Source: a virus
IMG/VR virus record: IMGVR_UViG_3300005254_000003
Coordinates: 86 to 64,085 of that record
Strand: one strand, 5' to 3'
Length of the DNA stretch: 64,000 nt
Below, piece after piece: positions 5,692 to 61,770 of this stretch (position 1 is the first letter of the stretch; every line of letters starts with the position of its first letter). Below the pieces are notes generated by a model. That model was not told the origin of the DNA, made no database searches, and saw only the letters and a list, made by a program, of their open reading frames with translations. The position numbers and the translations under genes are program-made.

Positions 5692-5757
5692 ATATAACAT
5701 TTACCTTTACGCGGACGCGAGGAAGCCCGCCGCGGCCCCTGAAGATGGCCGTTAAGC
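5692..5757 (+). repeat. attC-like site
   Basis: ATATAAC ... GTTAAGC (GTTRRRY); GC-rich imperfect stem. Confidence 0.5.
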
Positions 5758-5780
5758 TATGCGACAGGAGGAGAGCTGAA

Positions 5781-7469
5781 ATGAGATTCCAGACAACAAC
5801 TAGACCACTACGTGACCTCGTTCGTGATTTCCACGCCGGTGCGATTCTCTTGCCTCAATTCCAACGAGATTATGTATGGAAGGCTGCGAAAGTGCGTAAT
5901 CTTCTGGATTCTTTGTTAAAGGGGTTTCCCATTGGAGGGTTCTATTTGTGGCGCCCAGCAAGCGGTATGCTTGACGCTAAAGCAAAAACTCACGGTGAAC
6001 AGCGTTTTGCCCCACAATTCGAAGGATATCTTATCGATGGTCAACAGCGACTTACCAGTCTGGAGGCGTCGTATGGCCTATATACAGGGGAAGACACGCA
6101 GGGTGCTGAACTACGGTGTTATCTGGACCTCTCCGCGCCTGATATAAAGGAAGTAAGGGACACAAGACTATTCGTATCATATGCCGGTAAAAAGTCCATT
6201 GCTCGCCGAGTTGAGGCCGGTGATTCCACACTCATTCCTGTGTCACTTCTCTTTGATGGCCAGAACTACGAACTCCGAAAAATTACTGAGGAGGCATTAC
6301 GTTTACTTCCAAATTGGAATTCCAAGAGAGTTGAAGATGCCTTGGAACGGCTCGACCGATCCTTTGGTATGCTTGACCAACAGGTTCCGTGTACTACGGT
6401 CATTGATGTTTCGGACAAAGAAGCAGTCGAGGTTTTCAGTCGTCTTAATAAAGGAGGAAGCGCTCTAAGACAGGGAGACGTGCGCGCTGCTGAACTTGCA
6501 CGCGGGCGTGCGGTGGATGTATTGAAGCGTATGAGGGATTTCGTGAGCGGGGAACGCCCGCAGCGGTTAGGGTTTGGTTTTTCATTTGCGTTCCGAGCTT
6601 TAGTTCTTTTTCATCGTGGATCAGCGCAATTCAGTACTCTAAAACACAACTGGATGGAAGCACCCGGCCCTAACGGTCAGTCTCTCGACCTGTCTTGGCG
6701 AGATGCCGAACGTGCTATCGAAAAAGCTCTTGAATTCGTTGATACTTCTATGGGTTGGTCTCGGAGAACATTGGTCCCATCGGCAAATGCCGTTATAATT
6801 TTAGCTGCGGCATTCGACAAATCGGAGGGCAGACTAAACGCCGATGATAAACAAGCATATCGGCGATGGCTATGCCTGACATCTTTACGTGGCGTTTTCC
6901 AAGGTTCCGTTGAAAGCACTATCAATCGATTTCAGCGTGCAATTCGGAACAAGAGGACGGAGCTTCCAAAAGCTCTGCTTGAGGCATTAAGACGCGATGA
7001 AGCGAGAAAAATTCGATCAGAAGAACTCAACCGATATGCGCAACTCTGGGGTCCTGCTACACAAGTTATTCACGCTTGGCTTGTAAACCAGAAAGCCAAG
7101 GACTGGCTCAGTACGGAGCCTATCGATGATATTGCTCGTGGCGGCACACCAAGTCTCCCCGTTGGGGACCTCACTGTTCACCATATTTTTCCACGAAAGC
7201 TTCTTACTGAGGTAGTTGATAATCCAGATAAGGCGAATTGTCCGGCAAATTTCGCCTTGCTAAGCCGGCCGACCAACTCTGAATTTGGAGCCAAGCCACC
7301 CGACGAGGTATTGGCAATGCTTACCCCAGACCAGCGGAAAACCGCCGGTATCCAGTTTTTCGGGGAAGCTGCTGGAGACCGCCTCAAGCCGGACCGTTAC
7401 AGCGAGTTCTGTGAATGGCGAGCTGGGCGTCTGGCCGACTCAATAAATGATTGGCTTGGATTGGTATAA
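5781..7469 (+). CDS. GmrSD-like (DUF262 ParB-like + DUF1524 HNH) modification-dependent restriction protein
   Basis: LPQFQRDYVW, LIDGQQRLTS, FSRLNKGG, VHHIFP...NFALLSRPTN; AGGAGG RBS before ATG 5781. Confidence 0.85.
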   Translation: MRFQTTTRPLRDLVRDFHAGAILLPQFQRDYVWKAAKVRNLLDSLLKGFPIGGFYLWRPASGMLDAKAKTHGEQRFAPQFEGYLIDGQQRLTSLEASYGLYTGEDTQGAELRCYLDLSAPDIKEVRDTRLFVSYAGKKSIARRVEAGDSTLIPVSLLFDGQNYELRKITEEALRLLPNWNSKRVEDALERLDRSFGMLDQQVPCTTVIDVSDKEAVEVFSRLNKGGSALRQGDVRAAELARGRAVDVLKRMRDFVSGERPQRLGFGFSFAFRALVLFHRGSAQFSTLKHNWMEAPGPNGQSLDLSWRDAERAIEKALEFVDTSMGWSRRTLVPSANAVIILAAAFDKSEGRLNADDKQAYRRWLCLTSLRGVFQGSVESTINRFQRAIRNKRTELPKALLEALRRDEARKIRSEELNRYAQLWGPATQVIHAWLVNQKAKDWLSTEPIDDIARGGTPSLPVGDLTVHHIFPRKLLTEVVDNPDKANCPANFALLSRPTNSEFGAKPPDEVLAMLTPDQRKTAGIQFFGEAAGDRLKPDRYSEFCEWRAGRLADSINDWLGLV

Positions 7470-16291: not shown

Positions 16292-16507
16292 ATGATTTGC
16301 CCTAAATGCAACCATGAAATGAATCCAGTCAATCTCGAGAGGTCAGTTGTCGAGTGTGTAAAGTGCAGGCATCGTCAGCATATTTATTTGCCGGATCTGG
16401 ATGTCGGGAAAGTCCGGGTTGACCTTAATGAATTGACCATCGGTGAACTACCCTGGGCGGTAAGAGCTTTATTCAATGAGTCTACCGAGGATGAATATGA
16501 CGCTTGA
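16292..16507 (+). CDS. Small Zn-ribbon protein
   Basis: CPKC...CVKC; AAGGA RBS. Confidence 0.6.
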   Translation: MICPKCNHEMNPVNLERSVVECVKCRHRQHIYLPDLDVGKVRVDLNELTIGELPWAVRALFNESTEDEYDA

Positions 16508-18203
16508 ACACCATGAATTTCTTGAATTTATAAATGAGTACGCTGCCGAGGAACTGAAAAAGGCCAAGGGGCAGGAGGTTTCCGGCTCAAAACTTTTGCC
16601 GGCCCAGACAGATGGGCCGCAAACCTTTTTCGTCAATCCTTACGATTTCACCAGTCAATACGGGCTTTGGCGGGAGCGTCGGTCGGCTCTTACCTGGGAT
16701 ACCCTCCGGGTCATGGCGGAAAAGAATCCGATCGTCAGTGCCATCATCAACACCCGCATCCGTCAGATTAGCTCGTTTTCGGCCCCGGTCAGTGAACAGG
16801 AAACAACTGGCAACGACCAGTTGGGGTTCAAGATCGCCCACAAGGATTCAAACAAAAAGCTGACCAGCGGCGAGGAAAAATACGTTCTCGAGCTGGAGAA
16901 TTTCATCACTCATTGCGGATATGTCCAACCGGGGCAGCATCGGGTCGGCCGGGATGGGTTTGACATATGGTTGAAAAAGATCGTCCGCGATTCGTTGACG
17001 TTCGATGCCGCGGTGTCTGAGTTGGTTCCGACCCGGAAAGGGGGGATTCATTCGTTCTATGCGGTGGATGCCGCTACGATCCGGTTGGCGTTGACCCAGC
17101 AAGATGATGATGGGCTGGATGACAAGAAATACGTCCAAGTGCTCAACGGGCAGATTGTTGTCGATTACGAGCCGGATGAGATCATGTACGGCATCCGGAA
17201 TCCCACCACGAACATCAAAAACAATGGGTACGGGATCGCCGAGCTGGAGCAGCTTGTGACGATCGTGACGAACATCTTCAATGCCATGACCCACAACGCC
17301 ATGTTTTTCAAGAACGGCGCTGCAGTGAAAGGCTTGATCAACATCAAGACTGGTAAGGGCCAGACCGGAGCGCCGAATGATCAGCTCGAAGCGTTCAAGC
17401 GGGCGTGGCGGGCGATGGTGACCGGAAGCCAGAATGCCTGGTCAACGCCGATCCTCCAATCCGAGGGGGTGGAATTCGTCAGCATGGGTAACACCAACCG
17501 AGAGATGGAATTCCAGCAGTACCTCGAATTTTTGGTCAAGCTGGCCTGCGCTGTTTATTCCATCGATCCGGCTGAGATCAATTTCTATATGGCGGCTTCC
17601 AGTGGTGGCGGCTCGCCCATGTTTGAGTCCAATCAAGAAGCCAAGCTCAAGATGAGTAAGGACAAAGGGCTTCGTCCGCTTTTGGCTTCGATCGCCCGGT
17701 GGGTCAATTATTACGTCCTTGAGCCAATCACCCCCGATTTTCGGTTCGTGTGGGTTGGCATGGATTCTAAGGATGAAAAAGAGATCGTCGAGCTTCGGAC
17801 GAAAGAAGTTGGCTCATATATGACGGTTGATGAAGCCCGGGCCGAGGCGGGTAAAGAACCGCTGGGGGAGGAAAAGGGCGGCAACATCATTCTTAATCCG
17901 CAATATATCCAATATCTGCAACAGCAGGCAATGGCGGCACAGATGGGCGGCATGGGAGGTGGCGGCGATGAAGAAACCGGAGAGGGCGGAAATACCGATT
18001 TCAGCGATCGTGGTGGCGGCGATCAAGATCTGGAACTGGTTGGCGGGAAGCCGGAGGGAGAGGCCGAGGAAGTGGCCGGAGAGAAGCAAAGCGGAGAGAT
18101 CGCTGCTCAGTCAAAGGCAAAGGGTTCAGCGGATGAAAAAGAGATGAAAAAGAGTCTTTTGCGAACCCGAGAAAAATATCTTCGGATTATGATCGGGGGT
18201 TGA
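16476..18203 (+). CDS. Portal protein (Twort/SPO1-like); real start probably 16491 or 16497
   Basis: IINTRIRQI, KIVRDSLTFDA, YGIAELEQL, FFKNGAAVKG, EMEFQQYLEFL...IDPAEINF. Confidence 0.92.
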   Translation: MSLPRMNMTLEHHEFLEFINEYAAEELKKAKGQEVSGSKLLPAQTDGPQTFFVNPYDFTSQYGLWRERRSALTWDTLRVMAEKNPIVSAIINTRIRQISSFSAPVSEQETTGNDQLGFKIAHKDSNKKLTSGEEKYVLELENFITHCGYVQPGQHRVGRDGFDIWLKKIVRDSLTFDAAVSELVPTRKGGIHSFYAVDAATIRLALTQQDDDGLDDKKYVQVLNGQIVVDYEPDEIMYGIRNPTTNIKNNGYGIAELEQLVTIVTNIFNAMTHNAMFFKNGAAVKGLINIKTGKGQTGAPNDQLEAFKRAWRAMVTGSQNAWSTPILQSEGVEFVSMGNTNREMEFQQYLEFLVKLACAVYSIDPAEINFYMAASSGGGSPMFESNQEAKLKMSKDKGLRPLLASIARWVNYYVLEPITPDFRFVWVGMDSKDEKEIVELRTKEVGSYMTVDEARAEAGKEPLGEEKGGNIILNPQYIQYLQQQAMAAQMGGMGGGGDEETGEGGNTDFSDRGGGDQDLELVGGKPEGEAEEVAGEKQSGEIAAQSKAKGSADEKEMKKSLLRTREKYLRIMIGG

Positions 18204-25238: not shown

Positions 25239-25823
25239 ATGCTGATCATCGACCTTGAAAAAGCGGCCTATAAACTCCAGGGCCGAACGGACTTCCAGGG
25301 TTTAAACATTTCGATTGAAAACCGAAAGGGGTCGGTTCGCCGCGGGGTGGATAAAGATGGTCACGAATGGCAGACCAAGATGAAACATGCCTACGGGTAT
25401 ATCCGCCTTTCTGATGAGGTTCGCCGTAAGGGGGCCGACGGTGACCATGTCGATTGCTTTATCGGGCCTTCCCGCGGGTCTGAGCGGGTTTTCGTGGTGC
25501 ATTTGAACCGGGCAGACAATGAAAAGTTCGATGAGGATAAAGTGTTTCTCGGTTTCGACTCCAAGGATGAGGCCAAGGCTGCTTTTGATGCCAATTACGA
25601 CAAGGTGGGACAACGGCTCTACGGCGGCATGACTGAGATGGACATGTCTGCATTCAAGCAGCGCCTGGCGGCACGATCCAAGGGGATGATAAAATCGCTC
25701 CGGTTCGAGGGCAAGGATTCTCGCCCGGATTCGGGGTTGAAGAAATCTTTGGCTGCGGATTTGATGCACGTTTTGATGGTACCTGGCCGCCCTATTTTTG
25801 CGTCTAAACGCGAAAGTAATTGA
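25239..25823 (+). CDS. InPase (inorganic pyrophosphatase-like) domain protein of phage polyvalent-protein type
   Basis: FQGLNISIENRKGSVR...YGYI...GADGDHVDCFIGP...FDEDKVFLGF...AFDANY; GGAGG RBS. Confidence 0.8.
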   Translation: MLIIDLEKAAYKLQGRTDFQGLNISIENRKGSVRRGVDKDGHEWQTKMKHAYGYIRLSDEVRRKGADGDHVDCFIGPSRGSERVFVVHLNRADNEKFDEDKVFLGFDSKDEAKAAFDANYDKVGQRLYGGMTEMDMSAFKQRLAARSKGMIKSLRFEGKDSRPDSGLKKSLAADLMHVLMVPGRPIFASKRESN

Positions 25824-25827
25824 TTAC
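25816..25827. promoter_or_regulatory. Palindrome 4
   Basis: GTAATTGATTAC. Confidence 0.8.
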
Positions 25828-25843
25828 GTTGATGAGGGATAAG

Positions 25844-28756
25844 ATGCAGCATTTCATCTACGTCGATTTGGTAAAAGCACATGTCAAAGCTCATTTCCGT
25901 CGTGATCCGAAAACCGGCAAACTGCTGTTCATCAAGGATTACGATTCCAAAGTTCATGGCAAGGCAGATCTTGAGTTTCACCAGGGCCATCAGGTTAGGG
26001 TGAACAACCCCCGGAGCAAATTCCACGGCCAGGTGATGACTGTCCGCCATTACTCCGACAAGTACAATGTCGTGCGTTTAAATATCCCCGGGAAAAACCA
26101 TACCGCCGATTTTGAGCCCCATCAGTTGGAGCATCATACGCCGGTAGCCGGCAGCGCCTCGCCGGCGACACCTCCGCCGGCTAAAGCCATGACGTTGGAT
26201 GATGCCAAGACTGCGTTGGGGTTGGCTGGGATCTCTTTTGCTTCTGCGGAAATGGCCCACGAAAGAAAGCGGGTCGAATCGATGGATGCAGCCAAGCTCA
26301 AGGCCAGGATCTCCAAGATCAAAGAGAGCCAGAAGCTCTACAATTTCATGCGGGCGTTGATGGAGTGGGGTACCGCCGATAAGCGGGAAGTCGCCAAAGA
26401 CATCGAAAAGGAATTGATCAAGCGAGCGGAGGATAAGAAGGCTGCTGCGCCGGCAGCTAAACCGGTAACCAAGCCGCCAGCCACCCCGCCGGCGGTTGCA
26501 AAAATCACTTTCGATCCTGGGGATAGGGTCCGAATCAGTAATCCCCGCAGCAAGCATCACGACAAGGAGGGTGTGGTCACCTCCTTTTCCGACAAGTACA
26601 ACGTGGTCCGATTGAAACTCGATGACGGTTCCTACACGGATGTGAGCCCGGCTTCTGCAGTTAACCTGTCGGGGAACAACCAGTCAGCTCCGGCGGCACA
26701 ACCAGCTCCTGAACCGGAAAAAACTCCCGAACCTCCGAAGGCTCCCGAACCTCCGAAGACTGCGGCGGATTTTCCGCATGACAAAGCGGCTGCCTGGAAA
26801 TACGCCAGCAACGATCAACGGTCCTTGGCCCGGGTCACGGGGATGGTCCCGCTGGACGACAAAGCGGCCGAATACATCAAGAAAAATCTTCAGAAAATCA
26901 CTGCGAAGGCTGGGACGACGAATGTACCTTCCTCCGGTTACAGAGCGAGCAATGACAGGTGGTATGGGGTCAAGACCCGAGGTGGGTACACCATCCCGAA
27001 ATATGTGAATGAGTATTTGAATTCGGATTGGCGTACCACAGGCGATATCATGACCGCTTTCCGTCTTGATGTTAAAGGCGACAAGCCTATTTCCGATACG
27101 GCGATTGGTTTCATCCAACGCGGAAAAGAGGACTGGGAAAAGGCTGGCTACGATTATGTTAAAATCGAGGAAGATCTCAAGGAACTCGGCAAGCTCATCG
27201 AGGAAGCGGTTTCGAAAGAAACAGCCAAACAGCAACATTCATTGCTTGCGGTAGATTTTATGCTTGAGAATCTCGCCCATTCTTTGCGGATAAAAAATAC
27301 TGGGCCTGATTCGCATCAGGTCAAGCCGTCTGAGTTCATGAAAACAATGATGGAAAAATTTACTCCGGATATGAAAGTCTCCGAGTTCTTGGACCACTAT
27401 ACCAAGTTGAATGCTGATGATCTGCTTGATCTAAAATCGGTCAAGGAGCTTTTTCACGCTTATGCCGGCCCCGGTTTTCAAGGCAATCCGGAACATCTCA
27501 CCATGAGGGATGTAACCGATGGCTTGACTCGTTTTATGGGGAGAGCGCGCAAGATCGCTTGGACTGGGAGCCCTGCTGATGATATTGAAATGCGGGGTTT
27601 TCTCAATGTGATGAAAGAACGTAGCAGTGCAGTTCGATATCTGCATGAAAAATTTGGTGTCGAACTGGCGACTATTATCAAAGATAGGGGCTTTTCCGGG
27701 GATAACGATTCAATGACTTCCTTTATTGCATCCGGCGGTGTTGGAGCCCCACCTTTTGCCAGATGGTCCAATTTCCGGGTTATAGAGCCGGGAATGGTTA
27801 CTTACCCTCAGAAAAAAATATCAGACGAAATTCTCAAGAGAATCAAAAACAGCGACATCTTGCGAGATCAGTGGGCGGCGAATTATGTCACTGTCGTGGG
27901 ACAGGCTAACTTGACGAAAAATTATAACCGGCCGTTTAAAAGCCGGGTTTTTCCGAGAGGTTTGATTCAAGATCAAGGCCCGCGAGCGGTTGGGATGAAA
28001 ATTGCCCGACAAAGCGGCAAAGTGGATGACATCGCCGATAGTATGTCCAAGCGGTATTGGAAAGAGGTCGAGAAACAGAAAAAGCTCAAGGCATCGGGGC
28101 AAAAAGGAGCCGACCCGGCGGATCGAAGTGACCCACCGCCGGATTACTTGGGCTGTACGTTCAAATCCGTGGATGACAAGACGGCCAATTTTCTCCGAAA
28201 AAAGATTGAAAAGGCCTGGGATAAAGATGTGCATGGCGGGTTCTTTTTCAAAATCCATGGGATCTATCAAATCGGCGGCATGGATCATCACGGTAAATAC
28301 AAAAAGATTGAGAAAGATCGTGACAACGTCATGTATGGCTACCACTCGACCAATTTCCAAGCAGCCGCATCGATTGTGAAGTCGTCTTATCGGGCTGGCG
28401 GCGGGATGCTCGGCGACGGGGTTTATGTTACGGATGTGAGTTCCAAAAGCGCACAATATCTTTTGGGCAACTGCAACGTAACCCGGCGTCCGGGGACTCG
28501 GGGCGTCTTTCTGATGAACAAGGTTTCTTTGGGCAAAGTCCATGACAAGAGCTATGGGGCTCCGAATTCCAATCCCCACGAAACTCCCAGTCTCGACAAA
28601 GCGGATACGGTTTTTGCTCCCAAAAACAAGATGGTTCCGGGTTATTCGACAAAGGTGTTGAACGATGAACATGCGGTCAAGGATGCCAATGCCGTCATTC
28701 CGATGTATTGGGTGGATTTGGAATTAACGGATCGTTCCGGCAAAACTAACCCGTAA
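25844..28756 (+). CDS. Multidomain virion-cargo-like protein: targeting motif + 2 KOW/SH3-like domains + C-terminal PARP-like ADP-ribosyltransferase
   Basis: YGYHST / MLGDGVYVTDVSSKSAQY / KVSLGKV / NDEHAV align to the PARP H-Y-E catalytic motifs; GAGGGA RBS before ATG 25844. Confidence 0.85.
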   Translation: MQHFIYVDLVKAHVKAHFRRDPKTGKLLFIKDYDSKVHGKADLEFHQGHQVRVNNPRSKFHGQVMTVRHYSDKYNVVRLNIPGKNHTADFEPHQLEHHTPVAGSASPATPPPAKAMTLDDAKTALGLAGISFASAEMAHERKRVESMDAAKLKARISKIKESQKLYNFMRALMEWGTADKREVAKDIEKELIKRAEDKKAAAPAAKPVTKPPATPPAVAKITFDPGDRVRISNPRSKHHDKEGVVTSFSDKYNVVRLKLDDGSYTDVSPASAVNLSGNNQSAPAAQPAPEPEKTPEPPKAPEPPKTAADFPHDKAAAWKYASNDQRSLARVTGMVPLDDKAAEYIKKNLQKITAKAGTTNVPSSGYRASNDRWYGVKTRGGYTIPKYVNEYLNSDWRTTGDIMTAFRLDVKGDKPISDTAIGFIQRGKEDWEKAGYDYVKIEEDLKELGKLIEEAVSKETAKQQHSLLAVDFMLENLAHSLRIKNTGPDSHQVKPSEFMKTMMEKFTPDMKVSEFLDHYTKLNADDLLDLKSVKELFHAYAGPGFQGNPEHLTMRDVTDGLTRFMGRARKIAWTGSPADDIEMRGFLNVMKERSSAVRYLHEKFGVELATIIKDRGFSGDNDSMTSFIASGGVGAPPFARWSNFRVIEPGMVTYPQKKISDEILKRIKNSDILRDQWAANYVTVVGQANLTKNYNRPFKSRVFPRGLIQDQGPRAVGMKIARQSGKVDDIADSMSKRYWKEVEKQKKLKASGQKGADPADRSDPPPDYLGCTFKSVDDKTANFLRKKIEKAWDKDVHGGFFFKIHGIYQIGGMDHHGKYKKIEKDRDNVMYGYHSTNFQAAASIVKSSYRAGGGMLGDGVYVTDVSSKSAQYLLGNCNVTRRPGTRGVFLMNKVSLGKVHDKSYGAPNSNPHETPSLDKADTVFAPKNKMVPGYSTKVLNDEHAVKDANAVIPMYWVDLELTDRSGKTNP

Positions 28757-28769
28757 AAGAGGCTGAAAA

Positions 28770-29066
28770 ATGATGCTCGTTAATCATTCGAATTATTTCG
28801 ATTACAATGGCCAGATTTACTGTGAAAAACTCATGGATGTGGTCCGGGCCGATGAGCAGCATTACGAGAACTATTGCCTGAATTGCCGTTTTTTCAATGG
28901 GCACCTGTTCGGCGAGGGGGTGGAGTGTCTTTACGAGGACTCCACGGTCAAGGACGGTGAGGAAGTGATCGGTGTAACCGATCCTTTCGAGTACCTGGAT
29001 AAGCGTCGCAAAGCACGTTCTATTGAAAGAGAACGCAAGGCAACCGATTTCACCGTAAAGCGGTAG
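28770..29066 (+). CDS. Small Cys-containing hypothetical protein
   Basis: C...CLNC...C; directly downstream of the ART gene. Confidence 0.55.
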   Translation: MMLVNHSNYFDYNGQIYCEKLMDVVRADEQHYENYCLNCRFFNGHLFGEGVECLYEDSTVKDGEEVIGVTDPFEYLDKRRKARSIERERKATDFTVKR

Positions 29067-29075
29067 CGAGGGGCC

Positions 29076-29771
29076 ATGTCGCACGTCAAGCAATACACCC
29101 GGGTCAGCCACGGCAAAATGCAGACCGTTCGCGCCTATGATGATAAGCGTTCGCGGTCTGGAAAAAAGGTTTCACACCATGTCGTGACGATTGACAAGGG
29201 GATGGAAAAGATCAGGGAAACGGTTACGGAGCTGCTGCGGACGGATGCGGGCGTCAAGGAGCTGGAGGCCAAGGTCAAGTCCGGCGGCTTTTTAAAGTCT
29301 TTGCCCGAGGTGGCGGCGTTGTATGGGGTCGAACAAGGCGTCCACCATCCCTATCGGGATACCTTCGATCATACGATCCAGGTCATAAAACACTTGCCAG
29401 CGGATGCCAGCGATAACGTCCGCTGGGCGGCGTTGCTGCATGATATCGGCAAATCAACGACCCAACAGGTACATCCGGATCGGGGCATCGTGTTCGATGG
29501 CCATGAATACGCTGGCTACAAGATGGTGGGCAAGGTTCTCGATCGCCTGGGGTTCTCCAAGGATGATCAGGCAGAGATCAAGCATCTGGTCCTTCATCAT
29601 GGCAACCTGCGGACCAAATTCCTTCGATCGGACGAAAGCGAGGCTCGGGAATTTATGGCCCACAAGCATTTTGAGACTTTGCTGGCGTTGCATCGAGCGG
29701 ATGTGAAAGCGTCCGGCCGGGATCCGAAAGAGGTGCTCGATGCCATCGATGAATTAAGGCAAAAAGATTAG
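29076..29771 (+). CDS. HD-domain phosphohydrolase (CCA-enzyme-type HD) with N-terminal HVK targeting motif
   Basis: HH...DTFDHT...WAALLHDIGK...GHEYAG...HH; N-terminus SHVKQYTRVSHGKMQTVRAYDD. Confidence 0.85.
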   Translation: MSHVKQYTRVSHGKMQTVRAYDDKRSRSGKKVSHHVVTIDKGMEKIRETVTELLRTDAGVKELEAKVKSGGFLKSLPEVAALYGVEQGVHHPYRDTFDHTIQVIKHLPADASDNVRWAALLHDIGKSTTQQVHPDRGIVFDGHEYAGYKMVGKVLDRLGFSKDDQAEIKHLVLHHGNLRTKFLRSDESEAREFMAHKHFETLLALHRADVKASGRDPKEVLDAIDELRQKD

Positions 29772-29789
29772 TTTTATCCATAAATACAA

Positions 29790-29801
29790 GTAAGTAATTA
29801 C
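29790..29801. promoter_or_regulatory. Palindrome 5
   Basis: GTAAGTAATTAC. Confidence 0.8.
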
Positions 29802-29822
29802 ATATATTGGAGGCCCGGCTAT

Positions 29823-31982
29823 ATGTTGATCGATCTGAAAAACATCAAGGTTGTACCCTTGGCTGAATTTGATTTGGAAAAAGCGGCCTTCAAGCACGGG
29901 TACTACACCCATCTGGTGCCAAAAAAAGTCGTTGGCAAGGATGGAGTTGAGCGGATCCACTGGGTCAATCCGGACAAGGACAAAAAGACCAAGCTGGCCC
30001 GAGTGTCTCATCATCGGGAGGGTAATGAAGCCGAACACCATGCCGAGATCAGTCAGAAGCATATAATTGATCCGAAGGATTTGCAGAGGTTTTCCGAGGG
30101 CGACAAGGTGGTTGTATCCTGGGGCGCTCATAAGGGCCGTGAAGGGGTTTTCCGCGGGGATTTGGCCGGTCCTTCGCCGAGGGTGTCGGTTGCGCTTTTC
30201 AATGCGAAAACCGGCAAGCATGAAGCCAAGACGATGAACATCAATTACATCAAGTTGGTTCACCGGGCGGATGAAGAAACCAAAAAGGTAATCGAGCGCA
30301 AGACCGTCGAGGCGACCAATCTGAAAGGGGAAACGATTCTGGTCGATCGTGGGGATTTTGAAAAATACTACAAGGACCGGGACAAGAAAAAGACGATTCA
30401 AGAGCGGGTGGCCGAGGAAGCCAAGCGCCTGGTAGTCGGCGGCGTGTACCGGCGGCCGGATGGTCGGATGATCGGGGTTGAATCGTCGCTGAAGGTCGGG
30501 TCTTCGACGCAATATTCTATCAGGGTGGTTGACCGAAGAAAAAAAGCGGACAAGGTGGGAAAGGTCGACGAAGACCGGCTGCAGGGAATCTTGGACAAGC
30601 AGAAATATGAGCGGGTGCCCCGGCCGACGATCACCAAAGAGGCGAAAACTTTTGATGAAGACGACGGCACCTGGAAAAAATGGGTAACGGACAAGCCGCT
30701 CAGTGCAGATCTGGAAAGCGGCGAGCTGCATCGTAAAGGGCATTTCGGTTACGATGCAAAAACGGGGATGCGGGTTCCTACAGAAGCCGATGAGGACATT
30801 GCCCGTAAAATCCTTGCCGAGCATTGGTCGATGCTGGAACGCACGGTAAACAACCGCGTAGCGAAATATCCCACGGTGCCGGAGGGTGAAATCAGCCCAG
30901 CCGACATCATCGATGGTTTGACCAAGGCGGTGGCCAGTTACGAACCGTTGCTCGATACCGGGGGCGGGATTGAGGGGCGCCTCCGGAAGTATGCCGACTC
31001 CTACGCCCGGAGTGAGGCTGAAAAGATCCATGAGCGGGAAACGGCGACGGTGCGGGATGACTTGGTCAAGGAGGATGGGGATACCACCGATGCTCCGATC
31101 ACGTCGGCTGTCGATAAGGCGGCTGTCAAAGAGATGATCGGGGATCTCAACGAGATCATGGCTTCTGCCTTTGTTTCCAAACAAGATGCGATGATCTTGG
31201 AGGAAGGCCTTGCCGATGAGGCAGACATGATGAGTTGGCTCTACGGGGATGAAAAGATCCTCGATGTCATGAAGCGGTGGACCGGCATCGGTGAGTTTGA
31301 ATCGACCATCACCAAAAAGGAAGCTGCAGCCGAACTGACCGGTTTGGCTTACAACCCGGCGACGATGGAGCCTTACGCGACTTCGACGATCGAAACGCTG
31401 CTGCTTCCTCGGGAGCTTAACCGAATTATTGAGGCTTTCCAGAATGAGGGGATGCTCTATCCCGAGTTCATGGCGACGCTGAAAAAAGATGTCAACCTTC
31501 GGAATAAGTTGGCCCGGAATCGAAAAATCCTTCCTGTCCATCCGAAGGATGAGAAGGTCATCGCCGTTGTCCGCGAAAAGGTCAAAGAGTCCAAGGGTCG
31601 GGCGATCTATGCGGCCCAATTGATTCGCCGCGGGGTACCGCCGCGGTATGCGCCGGCGGTGATGCAGCTTGGTGATCGGATCATGGCCGGCCGAAGTGCT
31701 CCGTATGATTACGCCAAGCAGCTTCCCCGTGAGGTGTGGAAAGACGGGGCGAAGGCACTGACGCAGTGGTTCAAAGATCAATTGCCTACATCGGTGTTTG
31801 CTGGCAAACGAGCTGCAGCATTCAATTTGCCCCAGCGGTTCGATGTTGAGGGTCCGATAAACAGGGCAATCGCTGATGAAAAGCGGCTGAAGGAAGAAAA
31901 CGAGCAGGCGGCCAGCCGCGAATATTCCAAGATGGGGAAAGAGCCCCCGGCGCCTCCAAAGCCCACTAAGGTAATTATCTAA
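29823..31982 (+). CDS. Large head-region protein with KOW motif and sigma70 region 2/4-like segments
   Basis: GLTKAVASYEP (r2-like); ILDVMKRWTGIG...TKKEAAAEL (r4-like); FSEGDKVVVSWGAHKGREG (KOW). Confidence 0.6.
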   Translation: MLIDLKNIKVVPLAEFDLEKAAFKHGYYTHLVPKKVVGKDGVERIHWVNPDKDKKTKLARVSHHREGNEAEHHAEISQKHIIDPKDLQRFSEGDKVVVSWGAHKGREGVFRGDLAGPSPRVSVALFNAKTGKHEAKTMNINYIKLVHRADEETKKVIERKTVEATNLKGETILVDRGDFEKYYKDRDKKKTIQERVAEEAKRLVVGGVYRRPDGRMIGVESSLKVGSSTQYSIRVVDRRKKADKVGKVDEDRLQGILDKQKYERVPRPTITKEAKTFDEDDGTWKKWVTDKPLSADLESGELHRKGHFGYDAKTGMRVPTEADEDIARKILAEHWSMLERTVNNRVAKYPTVPEGEISPADIIDGLTKAVASYEPLLDTGGGIEGRLRKYADSYARSEAEKIHERETATVRDDLVKEDGDTTDAPITSAVDKAAVKEMIGDLNEIMASAFVSKQDAMILEEGLADEADMMSWLYGDEKILDVMKRWTGIGEFESTITKKEAAAELTGLAYNPATMEPYATSTIETLLLPRELNRIIEAFQNEGMLYPEFMATLKKDVNLRNKLARNRKILPVHPKDEKVIAVVREKVKESKGRAIYAAQLIRRGVPPRYAPAVMQLGDRIMAGRSAPYDYAKQLPREVWKDGAKALTQWFKDQLPTSVFAGKRAAAFNLPQRFDVEGPINRAIADEKRLKEENEQAASREYSKMGKEPPAPPKPTKVII

Positions 31983-31987
31983 GGGGC

Positions 31988-32016
31988 TTGACGGTTGTTG
32001 AAATTCGGAATACAAA
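31988..32016 (+). promoter_or_regulatory. sigma70-type promoter
   Basis: TTGACG-N17-TACAAA. Confidence 0.45.
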
Positions 32017-32821: not shown

Positions 32822-33070
32822 ATGAGCGAAGCGGAAAAAGAGTTCACCTTCGGGGCAGAAACGGTCAGAGCGATATTTGAGGAAATCCGGGAGAACCACC
32901 GCCGGCTGGATCGTTGCCCCGGGCCTCATGATTTTGGGGTGACCGACCAAAGCGGTTTCAATTTCCGTCAGAAATGCACCTGCAGCAAATGTGGGGGTGT
33001 TCTCGATGGAGTGGCCCTGCGTTGGTATTTGAAGGGTTTGGAACACGGGAAAAAGCTGCATGCTGAATAA
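32822..33070 (+). CDS. Small Zn-binding phage protein
   Basis: CPGPHDF...CSKCGG. Confidence 0.6.
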   Translation: MSEAEKEFTFGAETVRAIFEEIRENHRRLDRCPGPHDFGVTDQSGFNFRQKCTCSKCGGVLDGVALRWYLKGLEHGKKLHAE

Positions 33071-33899
33071 AGACCAAGTTGCCGAAATTGCCCGGATCAT
33101 CCGCGAACATGTGGGTGTCGCTATTTATTATCTGACCGGGTCACCGCCGGCGGGGATCAATGTCGATAAGCTGCGGGCGGCTGGAATTATTGGTCCGGAT
33201 GTTCCCGACAGTGTCATCGCCGATGCCTACCTGTACGGGGTGCTGTCTTCGCTCGACCCGAAGGTAGCTTCGGCACCGTTTTCGGTGATCAAAGAAACCC
33301 TTCGGAACCTGCCGCTCAGTCCGATCGAAAAAGCAACGGTTGAATGGCTCAACACCTCGGCTGCGCTTTATTGCCAGGGCTTGGGGAACCGGATTGAGAC
33401 AGCGACGATGCGGATCATCCACGATGCTGCCAAAGAGGCAGTCATGCGGGACACGATCCAAACCACGATGTCGGCGGCAACCCGGCATCGTAAAACCCGG
33501 GGTGAGATGGTCACCTTGCTTCGACGGGCGACAGAGGATGTTCAGCGGGATTGGCATCGGATCGTCAACACCGAGTTGCATAGCGCCAGGACACATGGCG
33601 TGGCCCATGGGATAACAAAGCAGTTCGGGCCTGATGCCTATGTCGTCGTCCGGCCCCATCCTGATTGCTGTGACCTGTGCCGGGAGGCTTTTCTTTCCCG
33701 GGGAGTGCCCCGGGTGTTCAAGTTGGCGGACCTGGCTGCGCGGAGCAATATCGATCGCACGGCGGCTGAGATCCGGCGGGCGCCCGGGATGCCGCCGGTT
33801 CATCCTCATTGCTTGTGTGAGATGTCGTACTTCAATCCGAAGCTTCACGAATTCGACAAAGAAGGGCGGGTCGTTTTCAAACAGTTCAAGGGGGATTAA
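33060..33899 (+). CDS. Minor head protein (MuF/gp7-like)
   Basis: RDWHRIVNTELH...CCDLC...PPVHPHCLC. Confidence 0.8.
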   Translation: MLNKDQVAEIARIIREHVGVAIYYLTGSPPAGINVDKLRAAGIIGPDVPDSVIADAYLYGVLSSLDPKVASAPFSVIKETLRNLPLSPIEKATVEWLNTSAALYCQGLGNRIETATMRIIHDAAKEAVMRDTIQTTMSAATRHRKTRGEMVTLLRRATEDVQRDWHRIVNTELHSARTHGVAHGITKQFGPDAYVVVRPHPDCCDLCREAFLSRGVPRVFKLADLAARSNIDRTAAEIRRAPGMPPVHPHCLCEMSYFNPKLHEFDKEGRVVFKQFKGD

Positions 33900-34282
33900 T
33901 GTCAGATTCAGCCTCTCCATTCATTGTTGCGATCGATTTTGATGGAGTGATCGCCCAGTACGACGGCTATAAAGGGGACGATCATTTCCTTCCGCCGAAA
34001 CCTTGGGCCAAGGAAGCGATCGATGTTTTGCGGGGCCACGGGATTAAAGTCATCATTTGGACCTGTCGGAACAATGAAGTTTGCTTGAAGGAATATCTGG
34101 ACAAATACGAGATCGGCTACGATGCGATCAATGCGGATGTTCATCCTGAGATCAAATCGCCTAATCAGATCTCCCGAAAGGTATTGGCCGATGTCTATGT
34201 GGATGATCGGGCTGTCCATTTTATCGAGTGGAACAGCGTAATGGAACAGATCCTTGACCGGATGGCAGCGGGGGTCAAATGA
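33899..34282 (+). CDS. HAD-superfamily phosphatase (capless)
   Basis: AIDFDGVI...IWTCR...ADVYVDDRA. Confidence 0.85.
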   Translation: MSDSASPFIVAIDFDGVIAQYDGYKGDDHFLPPKPWAKEAIDVLRGHGIKVIIWTCRNNEVCLKEYLDKYEIGYDAINADVHPEIKSPNQISRKVLADVYVDDRAVHFIEWNSVMEQILDRMAAGVK

Positions 34283-34732: not shown

Positions 34733-35635
34733 ATGATGGAAAACCAAACGCCAATTGGGTTCCACGAGGACGGGTCATTCCGGTTCCATGTTCCCATCGA
34801 TCTGAAAAAAGGGGACGATGGCAAGACATGGATTGAAGGGGTCGCCAGCGTTGAAAGAGAAGACATCGCCGGCGAAACGGTTATCTTGGCCGGGATGGAT
34901 CTGTCCTATCTTTTGAGCCGCGGCTATTTCAACGACAATCATGCCAAGACCACCGATGCAAAGGTCGGCGTCCCCACCGAAGCGAAAGTTACGCCCAATG
35001 GGTTGCAGGTCAAAGGGTATCTGTTCGACACACCCCGGGCCAAAGGCATTGTTGAGTTGGCCGAGGCCCTGCAGAAATCCGGCAGCGAGCGCCGCCTGGG
35101 TTTCAGTGTTGAAGGAAAGACCCTCAAGCGTGACGGCAAGATCATCAAACAGTGTTGGGTCAAGGATATTGCCATCACCGCCGAGCCGGTCAACCCCTAC
35201 ACCTACCTCGATGTCATCAAAAGCATTTCCCATGATATCGCCGTCAATGGTTATGTCGATGATCTGGAGGAAAAGGCCCAGGCCCCGAATATAGTAGAGC
35301 CTGAGCCGTTGGGCTACTGGGACCGCCTGGAACAGATTTTTTCCAGGTGCTTGTCAAAGATCTTTGGGGGCAAAGCTCAATCCGATTTGGAAAAGATGAT
35401 GATGGCCGGAACCCAGCGGCCCGTCGAGGATGGGGGATCAGCCCTTCGGAAAGAGGCAGTCGAGGAAGGGGTGACGAATCTGGACATCCCGCAAGGTGAA
35501 ACGAAAGAGCTAACCGAGGATGAAGCCGTCCAATATCTGATGCGACGTGGTTATTCCGAGGAAAACGCAAAACGGGTCGCAAATATGATTTTCAATACCG
35601 AAAATCGGAAGTTCTTGGCAACTGTCGGCCTATAA
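34733..35635 (+). CDS. Prohead maturation protease
   Basis: IEGVASVEREDIAGE...GYFNDNH...LGFSVEG...IAITAEPVNP. Confidence 0.9.
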   Translation: MMENQTPIGFHEDGSFRFHVPIDLKKGDDGKTWIEGVASVEREDIAGETVILAGMDLSYLLSRGYFNDNHAKTTDAKVGVPTEAKVTPNGLQVKGYLFDTPRAKGIVELAEALQKSGSERRLGFSVEGKTLKRDGKIIKQCWVKDIAITAEPVNPYTYLDVIKSISHDIAVNGYVDDLEEKAQAPNIVEPEPLGYWDRLEQIFSRCLSKIFGGKAQSDLEKMMMAGTQRPVEDGGSALRKEAVEEGVTNLDIPQGETKELTEDEAVQYLMRRGYSEENAKRVANMIFNTENRKFLATVGL

Positions 35636-35652
35636 CACAAGGAGGACAAATC

Positions 35653-36441
35653 ATGACGGAACAAAAAACAACGATGCCGGAAAAAGCTTTCCTGGAATCG
35701 CTTGACGCTCTGGAGAATTTGGCAAAGGGGATGGTCCCTGTTGCGGATGATCTGGATGCGGCTGCCGGTGAGGATCTGGAAAAAAGTCAGTCGGCCGACG
35801 GCCAGGGGGAAGCTGCTGCTGACGAAGCACTGGTCAAGGGGGATGATGGCGAGGACGATGATGACCAGGACAAAGACGAAGGCGATGAAGACACCGAAAA
35901 AGCCTTGTCCGGGGATGCCCTCTCCTTTGCCGAGGAAGCCGCTGCCGGTTCCGAAAATATCCGAAAAGCCATTGAAGTGAGTGACTTCCTGGCGGATCTG
36001 GTGGACCGGGTTGGCGATGCCATCGATGGCATTCGTCAAAACCTCGATACCCGCGTCGAAACCATCGAGAAAAGTCTGTTGACGGTATGTGAGGCCAATC
36101 AGTCCGTCGTCCAGGCTGTGGCCGAAACCCTGCGGAAGTCTTTCCAGGCAGTTTCGGAAAAGACGGACCAGCAAGCTGAAACCCTGCGGAAGTCGCTGGA
36201 TATCCTCAACGATGAGTTGAGCAGGACTCCTGCCCGGGCTCCCAAGGCCAAAGTCTCCGTGCTGGAAAAAGGTTTCAACGACGAAGAAAAGGGGATCGAA
36301 ATGTCGAAAGCCGACATCCTCAAGTCTTTGTCCGACATGTTCGAGCGTGGTGAACCGGGTGTGACTTCGCTGGATGTGATTCGATTCGAGTCCAGCGGCG
36401 TGTTGCCGCCCCACATTCAGAAGAAGTTTCAAGGCCGGTAG
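35653..36441 (+). CDS. Acidic scaffold-like protein
   Basis: Lies between protease and MCP; acidic coiled coil with many xxKS/KA/KG motifs. Confidence 0.7.
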   Translation: MTEQKTTMPEKAFLESLDALENLAKGMVPVADDLDAAAGEDLEKSQSADGQGEAAADEALVKGDDGEDDDDQDKDEGDEDTEKALSGDALSFAEEAAAGSENIRKAIEVSDFLADLVDRVGDAIDGIRQNLDTRVETIEKSLLTVCEANQSVVQAVAETLRKSFQAVSEKTDQQAETLRKSLDILNDELSRTPARAPKAKVSVLEKGFNDEEKGIEMSKADILKSLSDMFERGEPGVTSLDVIRFESSGVLPPHIQKKFQGR

Positions 36442-36498: not shown

Positions 36499-37932
36499 AT
36501 GAACGATATCATCACACTGGCTCAATACGAAGATATTCACACCGCCGGTTTCACCAGCATGCGCGAAGTTGAGGAACTCAACAAAGCCCTGGAAGCCGGC
36601 CATGACCGTCCGGTGTCCACCGGCGGCGGCGCTTTGCGCGTGGAGTCCCTGGAAGCCAGCCTCAAAGTGCTGACCCATCAGGCCAAACACTGTGCTTTCT
36701 GGCAGCGCGTTCCCAAACTACCCGCTTACTCGACCGTCGAGGAATACAATCAGTTGACGGCTGTTGGCGATGAGTCCGGAGCCTTCATTCCTGAAGGTAC
36801 GCTGCCCGATACGGTGGATTCCACCTACAACCGCGCAACCAGCCTGGTGAAGTTCCTGGGTACGACCCGCAGCGTTTCTCACCCCATGACCCTGGTCCGC
36901 ACCAACATCGGTGATGTGATGGCCCAGGAAAATGCCAACGGCATCCTGTGGATTCTCAAAAACCTGGAATGGGGCCTATTCAACGGCGACGCCGACATGT
37001 GTTACCTGGGTGCGGCTACCGATTCGACCCACCGTGAAGGTGTGGAGTTCAGCGGTCTGGAAAAACAGATCAACGCCGCCAACGTGGTCGATCTGAAGGG
37101 CGCTCCTCTGAGTGAGGGTGCGTTCTCCTATGCGGCTCAGTTGGTCGCCAGCAATTACGGTGTTCCGTCGGATTGTTTCTTGAGCTTCGCCGCTCATCAG
37201 GCATTCTGCGACACCATGCTGCCCAAAGAGCGCGTACCGCTGCCCACCCAAGGCGGTGGCTATACCGTCGGTGCCAATATCCCCGATGTGAACACCCCCT
37301 TCGGCAAGGTCAACCTCAACCCCGATGTGTTCCTGAACTCGGGCAAAACTCCTCCGTCCGCTGCGACCAGCACCAATGCTCCGACGGCTCCTGCGACCTT
37401 TGCCGCCGCAGCTATGGCTGGCACCGATGGTGTGTGGGCGACCCATGGTGGCGCCGGCACCTACAATTACGCCGTGACCGCCGTGAACCGCTACGGTGAG
37501 TCGGCTGCCGTGAATGCTGCTGCTGCCGTGACCGTGGCTGCTGCCGATCTCGGAAAGCACGTTCCCTTCACCATCACCAACGCCGCCGCCGTGTCCGTGG
37601 CGCCCGAGTATTTCAACATCTACAAGACCCTGCCGGGTGGCACCACGAAATACCTGGTCGGCCGTATCCGTGCCAACAGCGTGGCCAACGCCGGAACGAC
37701 CACCTGGGACGATACCGGCCTGTGGATGGCTGGCACGACCAAGGCTTTTGTGGGTGAGCTGAGCCCGCAAGTCATCTCCGTCAAACAGCTTGCTCCGCTG
37801 ATGAAAATGGATCTGGCGACCTTGGCTCCGGCCTACCGTTGGATGATCCTCTGCTACCTGACCTTCATCCTGTACGCCCCCAAGAAATGGGTGCAGTTCA
37901 TCAATGTCGGTGGCAGCCAACTGGCGGTGTAA
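36499..37932 (+). CDS. Major capsid protein (A511/Twort-like)
   Basis: LNKALEAG...GGALRVESLE, STVEEYNQ, ILWILKNLEWGLFNGD, LAPLMKMDLA; strong RBS AGGAGG. Confidence 0.92.
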   Translation: MNDIITLAQYEDIHTAGFTSMREVEELNKALEAGHDRPVSTGGGALRVESLEASLKVLTHQAKHCAFWQRVPKLPAYSTVEEYNQLTAVGDESGAFIPEGTLPDTVDSTYNRATSLVKFLGTTRSVSHPMTLVRTNIGDVMAQENANGILWILKNLEWGLFNGDADMCYLGAATDSTHREGVEFSGLEKQINAANVVDLKGAPLSEGAFSYAAQLVASNYGVPSDCFLSFAAHQAFCDTMLPKERVPLPTQGGGYTVGANIPDVNTPFGKVNLNPDVFLNSGKTPPSAATSTNAPTAPATFAAAAMAGTDGVWATHGGAGTYNYAVTAVNRYGESAAVNAAAAVTVAAADLGKHVPFTITNAAAVSVAPEYFNIYKTLPGGTTKYLVGRIRANSVANAGTTTWDDTGLWMAGTTKAFVGELSPQVISVKQLAPLMKMDLATLAPAYRWMILCYLTFILYAPKKWVQFINVGGSQLAV

Positions 37933-40874: not shown

Positions 40875-42464
40875 ATGGGTCTTTTTGATGAAGCATTGGC
40901 GAAAAGCCTTGAAACAGGGGATACAAAAGATCTTGCCCAGGTGGTGTTTCCCGGGGCCGAAAGTTTGGAAAAGGCCCATATCAAAGCCCATTTCCGGTTG
41001 AATCCCAAAACCGGGAAACGAGAATTCATCAAAGACTACGATGATGCCCGGCACAAAGATGAAGTACATGTCTCGTTTCACAAAGGGCACAAGGTCAAAG
41101 TGAACAATCCGAAATCCAAGCACCATGGCAAGGTGATGGAGGTGACTGGTTACTCGGAAAAATACGATGTCGTGCGGGGTAAAATTGATGGCGAGAAAAA
41201 CTCTGTCGATTTTCATGCAGACCACTTGGAGCATCATGGCGACAAGGCTGCTGCCCCTGATGCAAAAGAGGACAAAGAGCCGACCGGGAAAATCTCCGCC
41301 GAGCTGAAAGCGAAAATCGATAGCCTTTCTCCGACTGAAAAATTCACTGTCGTCAATGATTACTTGGGCCTTCGGGTTCATGCGGGTGATAAAAATTTCC
41401 GCGCCGACAAAGATGGTGGGACCGATCGGTTCCTGGCCCATGTCAATGTCAGAGATTTTCCAATCAAAAAGATCGAAGAAGCGGTCGATCGTATGTTGGA
41501 CCAAAAAGATCGGGGAAAAGTTGAACCACCGAAGCGGGATTATTCCAAAGGGGTTACGGTTGTCGTTACCAAGGTGGAGAGACTGCCTGGTGGCCAAGGC
41601 GACCGTGTTGCTTTCAGCTATGACGATGGCACTCCAGTAGAAGATAAAATCATGGCGGGTTGGTCCCACCGACATGGGCCCAGCAGCAGTGATCCCAATC
41701 CGGCTGCTATCAGGACCATGAGCACCTACAAGGTAGGGGAAAAATACAAGCTCACCCGCGACAATCGTGGAATGTGGGCCGAACCCCATCACACGAACAA
41801 GGTGGCCGAGGGTAAAGCCCCGACAGATACAGGGCCCAAGAAAGACCTTGATGTTAAAACTACTCCCGAAAAATTGAAATATGACAAATTCGGTGCCCAT
41901 GTGAAATCGGGCGTGAGCAGCGTTTCGGATGCCGAAAAGATTCTGATGGAGCACGGTTTCACCTGGGACAAGAGCGACAAGTCTGGATCGCTTGGAGGCG
42001 CCATCTATGAAAAAGACGGCAAGGGGGTTGCCCACTTCGATGCAGCGGGCAAAACCTTGACGATCTATGAGCCCAAGGAAAAATCGGATTCCAAGCCTGA
42101 CCAATCAAAGGCAACAGGTGCCCAAAAACAATGGGGGACGGAAAAGGAAATTGCGGCGCCGGATGCTGGCATCGGTCCAAAGAGTTTCGAGACGCGGTTT
42201 CCCCACATCAAAGAGTTTTTTGAACAGGCTGAGAATACCCTTGAACTCGGGAAGTTGAAAAAACAGGCCGCCAAATTCGCCGCGAGTAACCCCGAGGGGT
42301 GGAAGTGGGGGCCGATTGACCACTTTCACAAGGAACACGCTGAGACTTTGAGGCAGCTTGGTCGATCCGGTCACAAACAAACGGCCGCAGCAGAACACCG
42401 GATGGATACTTTACTTCGAACCCGGGATTCATCCGGGCGGGCAACGGCGAGAAGGCGTTCATAA
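40875..42464 (+). CDS. Virion-cargo-like protein with the same N-terminal module as the ART protein
   Basis: LEKAHIKAHFRLNPKTGKREFIKDYDD + HKVKVNNPKSKHHG...YSEKYDVVR. Confidence 0.8.
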   Translation: MGLFDEALAKSLETGDTKDLAQVVFPGAESLEKAHIKAHFRLNPKTGKREFIKDYDDARHKDEVHVSFHKGHKVKVNNPKSKHHGKVMEVTGYSEKYDVVRGKIDGEKNSVDFHADHLEHHGDKAAAPDAKEDKEPTGKISAELKAKIDSLSPTEKFTVVNDYLGLRVHAGDKNFRADKDGGTDRFLAHVNVRDFPIKKIEEAVDRMLDQKDRGKVEPPKRDYSKGVTVVVTKVERLPGGQGDRVAFSYDDGTPVEDKIMAGWSHRHGPSSSDPNPAAIRTMSTYKVGEKYKLTRDNRGMWAEPHHTNKVAEGKAPTDTGPKKDLDVKTTPEKLKYDKFGAHVKSGVSSVSDAEKILMEHGFTWDKSDKSGSLGGAIYEKDGKGVAHFDAAGKTLTIYEPKEKSDSKPDQSKATGAQKQWGTEKEIAAPDAGIGPKSFETRFPHIKEFFEQAENTLELGKLKKQAAKFAASNPEGWKWGPIDHFHKEHAETLRQLGRSGHKQTAAAEHRMDTLLRTRDSSGRATARRRS

Positions 42465-61706: not shown

Positions 61707-61739
61707 GGCGCCTCCTTTCTTCGGAAACTCAACTATACA

Positions 61740-61770
61740 CAAAAAAAGTGCCCCGGCGCAAGGCCGGGGC
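61740..61770 (-). terminator. Terminator just upstream of the recombinase
   Basis: GCCCCGGC / GCCGGGGC stem with a T7-8 tract on the minus strand. Confidence 0.65.

Follow-up and report, generated by a model that had tools for sequence, protein, structure and literature searches.

Does a gene lying among phage head genes encode a protein that could act on the host RNA polymerase as soon as the DNA enters the cell? This question is raised by a 719-residue protein, here called P0001, which is encoded on a 64,000-nucleotide stretch of viral DNA (the window; positions 86 to 64,085 of IMG/VR record IMGVR_UViG_3300005254_000003). An original prediction, made by reading the sequence, had seen in it embedded sigma70-like regions 2 and 4 and had proposed a packaged, protease-matured effector of transcription. 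The window makes up most of a 66.4-kb linear virus record, the CheckV completeness of which was 41%. The open reading frame (ORF) on the plus strand and all the motif strings quoted for it were present on the translation: LEKA at residues 18–21, LVPKKVVGKDGVERIHWVNP at residues 31–50, ARKILAEHW...IIDGLTKAVASYEP at residues 327–375 and DVMKRWTGIG...TKKEAAAELTG at residues 481–507, together with a KOW-like stretch at residues ~87–118. The reading that we prefer, with a probability of about 0.42, is that P0001, which is conserved in the head module of myovirus-like prophages of Desulfobacterales, is a capsid cargo with a sigma-like core that would meet the host polymerase on entry.

A predicted, divergent sigma domain 2-like fold in the middle of P0001

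The full-length AlphaFold2 model of P0001, built from an alignment of 15 sequences, had a mean predicted local distance difference test score (pLDDT) of 78.5, and a second run on residues 310–719 with 18 sequences (pLDDT 76.4) gave the same secondary structure. The model consisted of a disordered leader (residues 1–20), a beta-rich part (25–290), a helical part (316–410), a disordered acidic stretch (408–443), a second helical part (450–567) and a C-terminal helical part (574–703). The model was compared with 48,161 PDB representatives in a fold search that was independent of Foldseek. Rows 1–21 were all domain 2 of sigma factors, aligned to residues 316–414, and sigma factors occupied about 35 of the best 50 rows, with Z-scores of 6.0–7.8 and root-mean-square deviations (rmsd) of 2.2–3.0 Å over 70–86 residues. 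The best row was RpoE (5uxx_C; Z 7.8, 2.5 Å over 81 residues); SigK (Z 7.5), SigH (Z 7.3), region 2 of E. coli sigmaE (Z 7.1) and sigma70 (1sig; Z 6.3) were also found, as were SigW, AlgU, sigma28, region 2 of RpoS, SigR, SigC, BldN and pro-sigmaK. The full-length model repeated this result with SigI6, WhiG, sigmaB, RpoS and sigma32. The predicted model has, in these residues, the fold of a sigma domain 2. Foldseek against the PDB gave no row at E≤0.001 with either model; with the model of residues 310–719 its non-significant list (all E-values at least 0.5) was headed by SigL, a sigma factor of the extracytoplasmic function (ECF) group, and contained many sigma chains.

Profile alignment was performed with hhalign against the seven sigma70-family genes of the Desulfosarcina metagenome-assembled genome (MAG) that carries a prophage copy of the locus. 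Residues 310–419 aligned with the RpoD-, RpoS/H- and FliA-like (group 1/3) sigmas of this host at P = 3.9e-4 and a probability of 35%. In this alignment ILAEHW...KYP...DII-GLTKAVASYEP was paired with LIRANL...KYT...DLIQEGNIGLMKAVDKFE, which corresponds to regions 2.1–2.2 in the correct register, and GLTKAVASYEP lay opposite GLMKAVDKFE/DP of the host proteins. The same part aligned with the four host ECF sigmas at P = 0.0045, and mismatched domain pairs, used as controls, gave P-values of 0.35–0.52. In a language-model feature search with residues 312–565, 25 of the 30 nearest named clusters were Sigma70_r2 (PF04542), mostly phage sigmas; the top three neighbours were phage sigma factors of ~175 amino acids (aa) with a cosine of 0.93, and cosines near 0.9 carry the caveats of the method itself.

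Because three partly independent methods (fold, profile and language model) converged, the middle of P0001 is predicted to hold a very divergent sigma2-like domain at residues 316–410. Its last helix contains a conserved tyrosine/aromatic pattern (Y390, A391, Y394 and A395). The region 2 of the original prediction is therefore predicted to be sigma2-like at the place named, as judged by fold search, hhalign and language-model neighbours, but as plain sequence it stayed at the level of chance. A complex predicted for residues 314–414 with residues 236–353 of the beta' subunit of the Desulfosarcina MAG (clamp helices) scored 0.27 against a mark of 0.32 in a run without controls, which speaks neither for nor against binding.

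Candidate domain 4 and the order of the domains

The second sigma domain read from the sequence fared less well, and the region 4 likeness of residues 450–555 is put forward tentatively, on the predicted model. In one row of the fold search these residues aligned with residues 353–438 of Taq sigmaA (Z 5.4, 3.0 Å over 86 aa), but hhalign aligned the sigma4 part with the four host ECF sigmas at P = 0.058 only when an 11-residue insert was placed in the turn of the helix-turn-helix, and gave no signal against sigma4 of the host group 1/3 sigmas. Residues G488, G490, A501, A502 and G507 are invariant in the P0001 family. The best-conserved block of the area, [WF]-x-G-[LI]-G...EAA..L.G, recalls LR-x-RFG[IL]...TLEE of primary sigmas.

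The spacing of the two regions agreed with the reading in the predicted model. There the sigma2-like domain is separated by an acidic, disordered linker from a helical domain in the place of region 4; this order fits a two-domain sigma, and residues 6–236 of the sigma28 holoenzyme chain 6pmj_F aligned over residues 320–543 of P0001 with both domains in order. In a shape search of the ESM Atlas, an ECF sigma of 212 aa was aligned over model residues 12–255.

Family, coding strand and hosts

The plus-strand protein is conserved in 14 other proteins with 23–94% identity. The family is small: a search of 5.8 billion sequences yielded nine proteins, and an exhaustive HMMER search yielded 12 clusters at 50% identity. 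Relatives were also present on two further IMG/VR contigs and in two bacterial MAGs, those of an uncultured Desulfosarcina (61% identity) and an uncultured Desulfobacterium (34%), and the hosts are therefore assigned to the Desulfobacterales. Whole P0001 gave nothing significant against Pfam, PHROGs or PDB sequences; rows of HIV capsid (E 0.2–1) were discarded as noise.

A minus-strand ORF of 753 aa (29754–32015) is longer than the P0001 gene and spans all of it. At L006, a homologous locus, this ORF is interrupted and reduced to short fragments. Because of this fragmentation, and because the product of the plus strand is conserved, the plus strand was taken as the coding strand, and the antisense ORF is probably a by-product of codon composition.

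Head-gene position and leader motif

All genes from ~16.4 to 58 kb lie on the plus strand and form a myovirus-type structural module, which also includes the sheath, the tube initiator and more tail genes. The P0001 gene is situated between the portal gene and the genes for protease, scaffold and major capsid protein (MCP). Its upstream neighbours, which travel with it (25239..29771, plus strand), encode an InPase protein, a protein ending in a PARP-type ADP-ribosyltransferase (ART) domain, a 98-aa product and an HD protein; on its 3' side, ORFs of 165 and 279 aa and a HAD-like protein precede the protease. The order InPase, PARP, ~95 aa, HD, P0001 homologue, ~160–190 aa ... ~280 aa, protease, scaffold and MCP recurred in L002/L005, L003, L006 and L016, and it was still kept in L006 and L016, where the P0001 homologue is just 33–34% identical. 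The block was retained in the Desulfosarcina and Desulfobacterium prophages and on an IMG/VR contig, and SU10_MCP was found in the homologous loci. The head-block position of the gene is thus conserved in its relatives, as expected of a capsid cargo.

The LEKA string pointed out in the original prediction belongs to a wider pattern. L-x-K-[ASG] occurred within the first 45 residues of 8 of the 41 prophage ORFs and in no tail or other ORF. The proteins concerned were prohead proteins (portal LKKA, protease LKKG, scaffold LAKG and LEKS, capsid protein LNKA) and candidates for cargo (InPase LEKA, PARP protein LVKA, P0001 LEKA and ORF 40875 LEKA). The HD protein begins where the others would be cut (MSHVKQY compared with KA|HVKAHF). 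In the P0001 family the motif stood at the same place in 14 of 15 members, the most distant ones included. This pattern is consistent with one type of prohead-protease site in all these proteins, at which a leader would be removed. Internal sites where a protease could release the sigma-like core were also looked for. The N-terminal site alone was conserved in the family, VDKA was present at residue 430 in 6 of the 15 members, and the total motif count equalled chance expectation. Judged by head-module synteny and the shared leader motif, P0001 is probably packed into the capsid. InPase domains of the type encoded upstream of P0001 have been proposed to be packaged into virions and injected (PMC5512222).

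N-terminal hairpin and KOW barrel

Residues 22–64 are the best-conserved block of the family, with invariant columns. In the predicted layout the hairpin leads into SH3/KOW-type barrels in tandem. One of these is a KOW barrel, in agreement with the motif that had been read from the sequence: residues 89–146 aligned with the KOW domain of T. maritima NusG at Z 9.2 (1.4 Å over 55 residues), and Aquifex NusG (Z 8.9), the Spt5 KOW (Z 8.2), the RfaH KOW, uL24 and eS4 were among the other rows. Foldseek returned eS4, Spt5 and NusG for this part (E ~1e-3). The family profile found only the uL24 KOW in the PDB (E 0.05), and Pfam KOW was matched in 3 of the 15 members (best E 0.0017), the protein of the window being below the family cut-off. 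Both the barrel fold, in the predicted model, and the KOW sequence motif are hence present. Pfam detected neither an NGN domain nor another family in P0001, and in the structural rows NusG was covered by its KOW domain only.

The PARP protein and ORF 40875 (40875–42464, 529 aa, in the neck/tail region) have a common N-terminal module of ~90 residues (57% identity, E 2e-28), which consists of a hairpin plus a KOW-like barrel. The barrel part is repeated inside the ART protein at residues 229–299. BLASTP of the N-terminal 310 residues of P0001 against these two proteins showed no similarity, although the plan is the same.

Evidence against a sigma-like core

Several results weigh against the preferred reading. 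Among the 15 family members, none matched the Pfam sigma families PF04542, PF04545 and PF08281 at E≤1, nor any other Pfam family at that level except for the weak KOW matches. NCBIfam models run on the sigma-like region gave scattered noise, which included a match of sigma70-ECF (TIGR02937) to a single member (E 0.12). When the record was scanned in six frames with Sigma70_r4 and Sigma70_r2, nothing was detected in the P0001 gene, whereas the control genomes were positive. In Smith-Waterman alignment with the RpoD-like sigma of the Desulfosarcina MAG, compared with shuffles, region 4 had z = -0.3 and region 2, in a misregistered alignment, had z = 2.1, and hhalign of the whole family region with the four host ECF sigmas gave a probability of 1%. 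No significant match between P0001 and a region 2 or region 4 sequence model of the sigma70 family was obtained. Because both the hidden Markov model (HMM) scans and the Smith-Waterman shuffles were negative, the sigma resemblance seen by eye is statistically indistinguishable from chance as plain sequence. The sigma-like strings exceed chance only at the level of profile and fold, and mainly in region 2.

The structural evidence has its own limits. Z-scores of 6–8 are in the range that the aligner often gives to helical models without a true relative, and the models of P0001 were built from just 15–18 sequences. Because such absolute values can be reached without kinship, the case for the sigma2 fold rests on the near-exclusive list of hits. 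The sigma4-like part carries a hairpin of 11 residues where a tight turn is needed, and its score was weak. Neither blastn nor tblastn found a relative of P0001 among 50,697 phage records. Moreover, because similar barrels occur in the neighbouring cargo candidates, the barrels of P0001 may serve packaging and not transcription.

Features of the window

Table 1. Coordinates of P0001, its predicted parts and the genes of the head block in the window, with residue numbers of P0001 in brackets.
Feature	Position	Strand	Remarks
P0001, whole gene	29823..31982	+	719 aa, translation without stops
N-terminal leader, disordered in model	29823..29885 (1–21)	+	Ends in LEKA, putative prohead-protease site; putative cut after K20
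Conserved beta-hairpin and first small barrel	29886..30014 (22–64)	+	FKHGYYTHLVPKK..KDGVERIHWVNPD; strands 25–64 in model
NusG/Spt5-type KOW (SH3-like) barrel	30081..30263 (87–147)	+	
Further beta-rich domains	30300..30692 (160–290)	+	No specific match; Tudor/SH3-like rows
Predicted sigma domain 2-like helical domain	30768..31052 (316–410)	+	GLTKAVASYEP motif; pLDDT 83–91
Acidic disordered linker	31053..31157 (411–445)	+	pLDDT 31–38 in both models
Candidate sigma domain 4-like helical domain	31170..31487 (450–555)	+	W-x-G-[LI]-G...EAA..L.G block
C-terminal helical domain	31530..31931 (570–703)	+	Generic helical-bundle rows only, Z <6
Portal, left edge of head block	16476..18203	+	PHROG portal 9.7e-56
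InPase protein	25239–25823	+	Pfam InPase 5e-42
970-aa protein ending in PARP-type ART domain	25844–28756	+	Pfam PARP 1.7e-9
98-aa ORF	Between PARP protein and HD gene	+	
HD phosphohydrolase	29076–29771	+	Pfam HD 2e-10
Head maturation protease	34733–35635	+	PHROG 5e-47
Scaffold	35653–36441	+	PHROG 2e-8
MCP, SU10-type HK97-fold	36499–37932	+	PHROG 2.7e-112

Directly before the protease gene lies a gene for a small HAD-like hydrolase (33899–34282; PHROG 'phosphoheptose isomerase' family, 7e-25), which is kept in the relatives. The conserved 279-aa neighbour (33060–33899), which ends in a ...HPHCLCE... motif, was considered as a Mu F-like head protein and rejected, as Pfam gave no match. The counterpart of this ORF in L003 (13309–15177) is 622 aa long and has a weak match to LAGLIDADG_3 (E 0.019); it may contain an intein or a homing-endonuclease insertion. 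In the prophage of the Desulfosarcina MAG (L002, 3489–8892) a minus-strand transposase gene (Transposase_29) splits the gene for the PARP protein, so that an N-terminal part of 826 aa is separated from a PARP fragment of 143 aa. This copy of the PARP gene is disrupted by an insertion sequence.

A scan with GpA_ATPase found no large terminase in the whole 66-kb record. In relatives (L003) the large terminase gene is directly upstream of the portal gene; in the window the portal gene is preceded by a minus-strand pair (10221–16029) that encodes a DNA methylase (1001 aa) and a ResIII helicase (940 aa). Genes of lower G+C content were observed further upstream, encoding GmrSD (5745–7469), an ankyrin-repeat protein (4482–5099), a SEC-C motif protein (2689–4308) and a trypsin-like peptidase. 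Possibly the element is defective, or a defence island has taken the place of its left arm. Near the other end, a plus-strand ORF of 66 aa (61968–62168; ...ALKCFDPKRETRFSSYAIEAIKHK...) matched Sigma70_r2 with 27.8 bits, above the Pfam cut-off. This ORF is unrelated to P0001, adjoins a tyrosine-recombinase-like ORF (61131–61742, minus strand) and resembles the truncated remains of a normal sigma factor gene.

Discussion

What the analysis shows, in silico only, is the ORF of P0001, its family and synteny, the leader motif that it shares with the prohead proteins, and the predicted KOW and sigma2-like folds. From these we infer a course of events in which P0001 would enter the procapsid together with the InPase, PARP-type ART and HD proteins encoded beside it, its leader would be trimmed by the prohead protease, and the protein would be ejected with the DNA. 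The sigma-like core would then engage the host core RNA polymerase, possibly with recognition of promoters, and host transcription would be redirected or blocked from the start of infection. A bolder version, in which phages of sulfate-reducing bacteria pack a protease-trimmed sigma-like protein that is injected with ART, pyrophosphatase-like and HD proteins and re-programs the host core polymerase at time zero, before phage gene expression, is in our judgement unlikely; it would give immediate early transcription a third route, beside promoters for the host sigma and packaged polymerases.

P0001 can be compared with the two-domain factors of the sigma70 family, that is, ECF/group 4 (RpoE, SigK, SigH), group 3 (sigma28/FliA, WhiG) and small phage sigmas. 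Like these, it has the helical sigma2 fold (predicted in P0001); its GL-x-KAV-x-x-Y-E-P block resembles the signature of region 2.2, GL-x-x-A-x-x-[FY]-[DE]-P. Behind an acidic, disordered linker comes a helical domain, in which the block R-[FW]-x-G-[LI]-G...T..E recalls region 4. Unlike them, it is invisible to sigma HMMs, has the 11-residue insert in the putative helix-turn-helix, and carries ~300 residues of beta barrels before the core and ~150 helical residues after it within its 719 aa. Its gene lies in the head module and not among regulatory genes. With NusG, Spt5, RfaH, uL24 and eS4 it shares the KOW barrel and the G-x-x-V-x-V...KG..G motif, but unlike NusG it has no NGN domain, and the same type of barrel is present in the neighbouring ART protein and ORF 40875.

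Among packaged proteins, Alt and the internal proteins IPI-III of T4 are targeted to the capsid, trimmed by a protease and injected, and Alt ADP-ribosylates RNA polymerase. P0001 is similar to these proteins in its short leader ending at a protease-type site, its location among head genes, the adjoining ART gene and the proposed action on transcription at entry. It differs in its motif (L-x-K before [ASG], where the T4 site is L/I-x-E) and in its payload, which would be sigma-like and not an enzyme, and its packaging is a proposal. Jumbo phages of the phiKZ/AR9 type pack virion RNA polymerases, and the virion RNA polymerase of N4 is carried inside the capsid as well (PMC4496689). P0001 would resemble these systems in that transcription machinery is carried in the capsid for the immediate reading of early genes; in contrast to a whole packed polymerase, it would be like a specificity subunit only and would need the host core enzyme. 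Phage polyvalent proteins (PMC5512222) draw on the same toolkit: their InPase, ART-type and phosphohydrolase domains are encoded among head genes, and injection has been proposed for them. In the window the domains are encoded by separate genes, each with a leader of its own. The text of that paper (Iyer et al. 2017) makes no mention of a sigma-like domain.

The chief alternative is that P0001 is a packaged internal or ejection protein, the helical middle of which merely looks like a sigma factor owing to a common arrangement of helices or an over-confident model. Such a protein would have no role at RNA polymerase and would act structurally, for example by binding the DNA end or the capsid interior, or by forming a channel during ejection. 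The negative HMM searches, pairwise alignments at the level of chance, Z-scores below 8, which are common without kinship, and Foldseek E-values that were all at least 0.5 agree with this account, and both the leader motif and the position in the head module would fit an internal protein. The account has difficulty, however, with an unbiased fold search that returned almost solely sigma2 domains, with a profile alignment that met the signature of region 2.2 in the correct register, and with an independent language-model search that also gave Sigma70_r2 clusters. We regard this alternative as rather doubtful, yet as the main competitor of the sigma-like cargo.

The two other explanations accept the sigma likeness and interpret it differently. 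P0001 could be a packaged sigma mimic that serves as a weapon or adaptor and not as a promoter factor, either blocking the sigma site and thereby shutting off the host, or docking the co-injected PARP-type ART on the polymerase, in a manner comparable to T4 Alt, which modifies the polymerase on entry. The best-conserved sigma-like feature is indeed the core-binding part (regions 2.1–2.2), the DNA-reading region 4 is aberrant, and the P0001 gene is always linked to that of the PARP-type ART; however, contact between P0001 and the ART protein is without support, and the conserved pattern of Y390, A391, Y394 and A395 is compatible with DNA contact. A mimic of this kind seems improbable. Still less probable is a protein that is not packaged at all, namely a sigma-like regulator expressed late, or a sigma carrying built-in regulatory extensions, which came to lie in the head operon by chance. 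Phage sigma factors are common, there are ECF sigmas that carry long extensions, and pro-sigmas activated by proteases are known (SpoIVFB:pro-sigmaK, 8vjl_B, was among the fold-search rows). Nevertheless, the place between portal and protease is stable across relatives that are just 33% identical, the leader motif is common to prohead components only, and a factor that starts late transcription would not be expected inside a late operon. P0001 could be a true promoter-specificity factor, a blocker of the sigma site or an ART adaptor; a sigma-like capsid cargo is the best-supported account of it.

Sigma factors encoded by phages, whole RNA polymerases that are injected (N4 and phiKZ-like phages) and injected modifiers of polymerase (T4 Alt) are known. 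Our literature search found no report of a sigma-like specificity subunit as capsid cargo. If P0001 is packaged and binds core polymerase, it would provide a cheap takeover of transcription at entry and lengthen the list of cargo functions. The very divergent sigma2 domain, which current HMMs do not see, could in that case serve in searches for further proteins of this kind. Even if P0001 is not a working sigma, separately encoded cargo genes with one prohead-type leader motif would be a tidy system in which to study capsid targeting.

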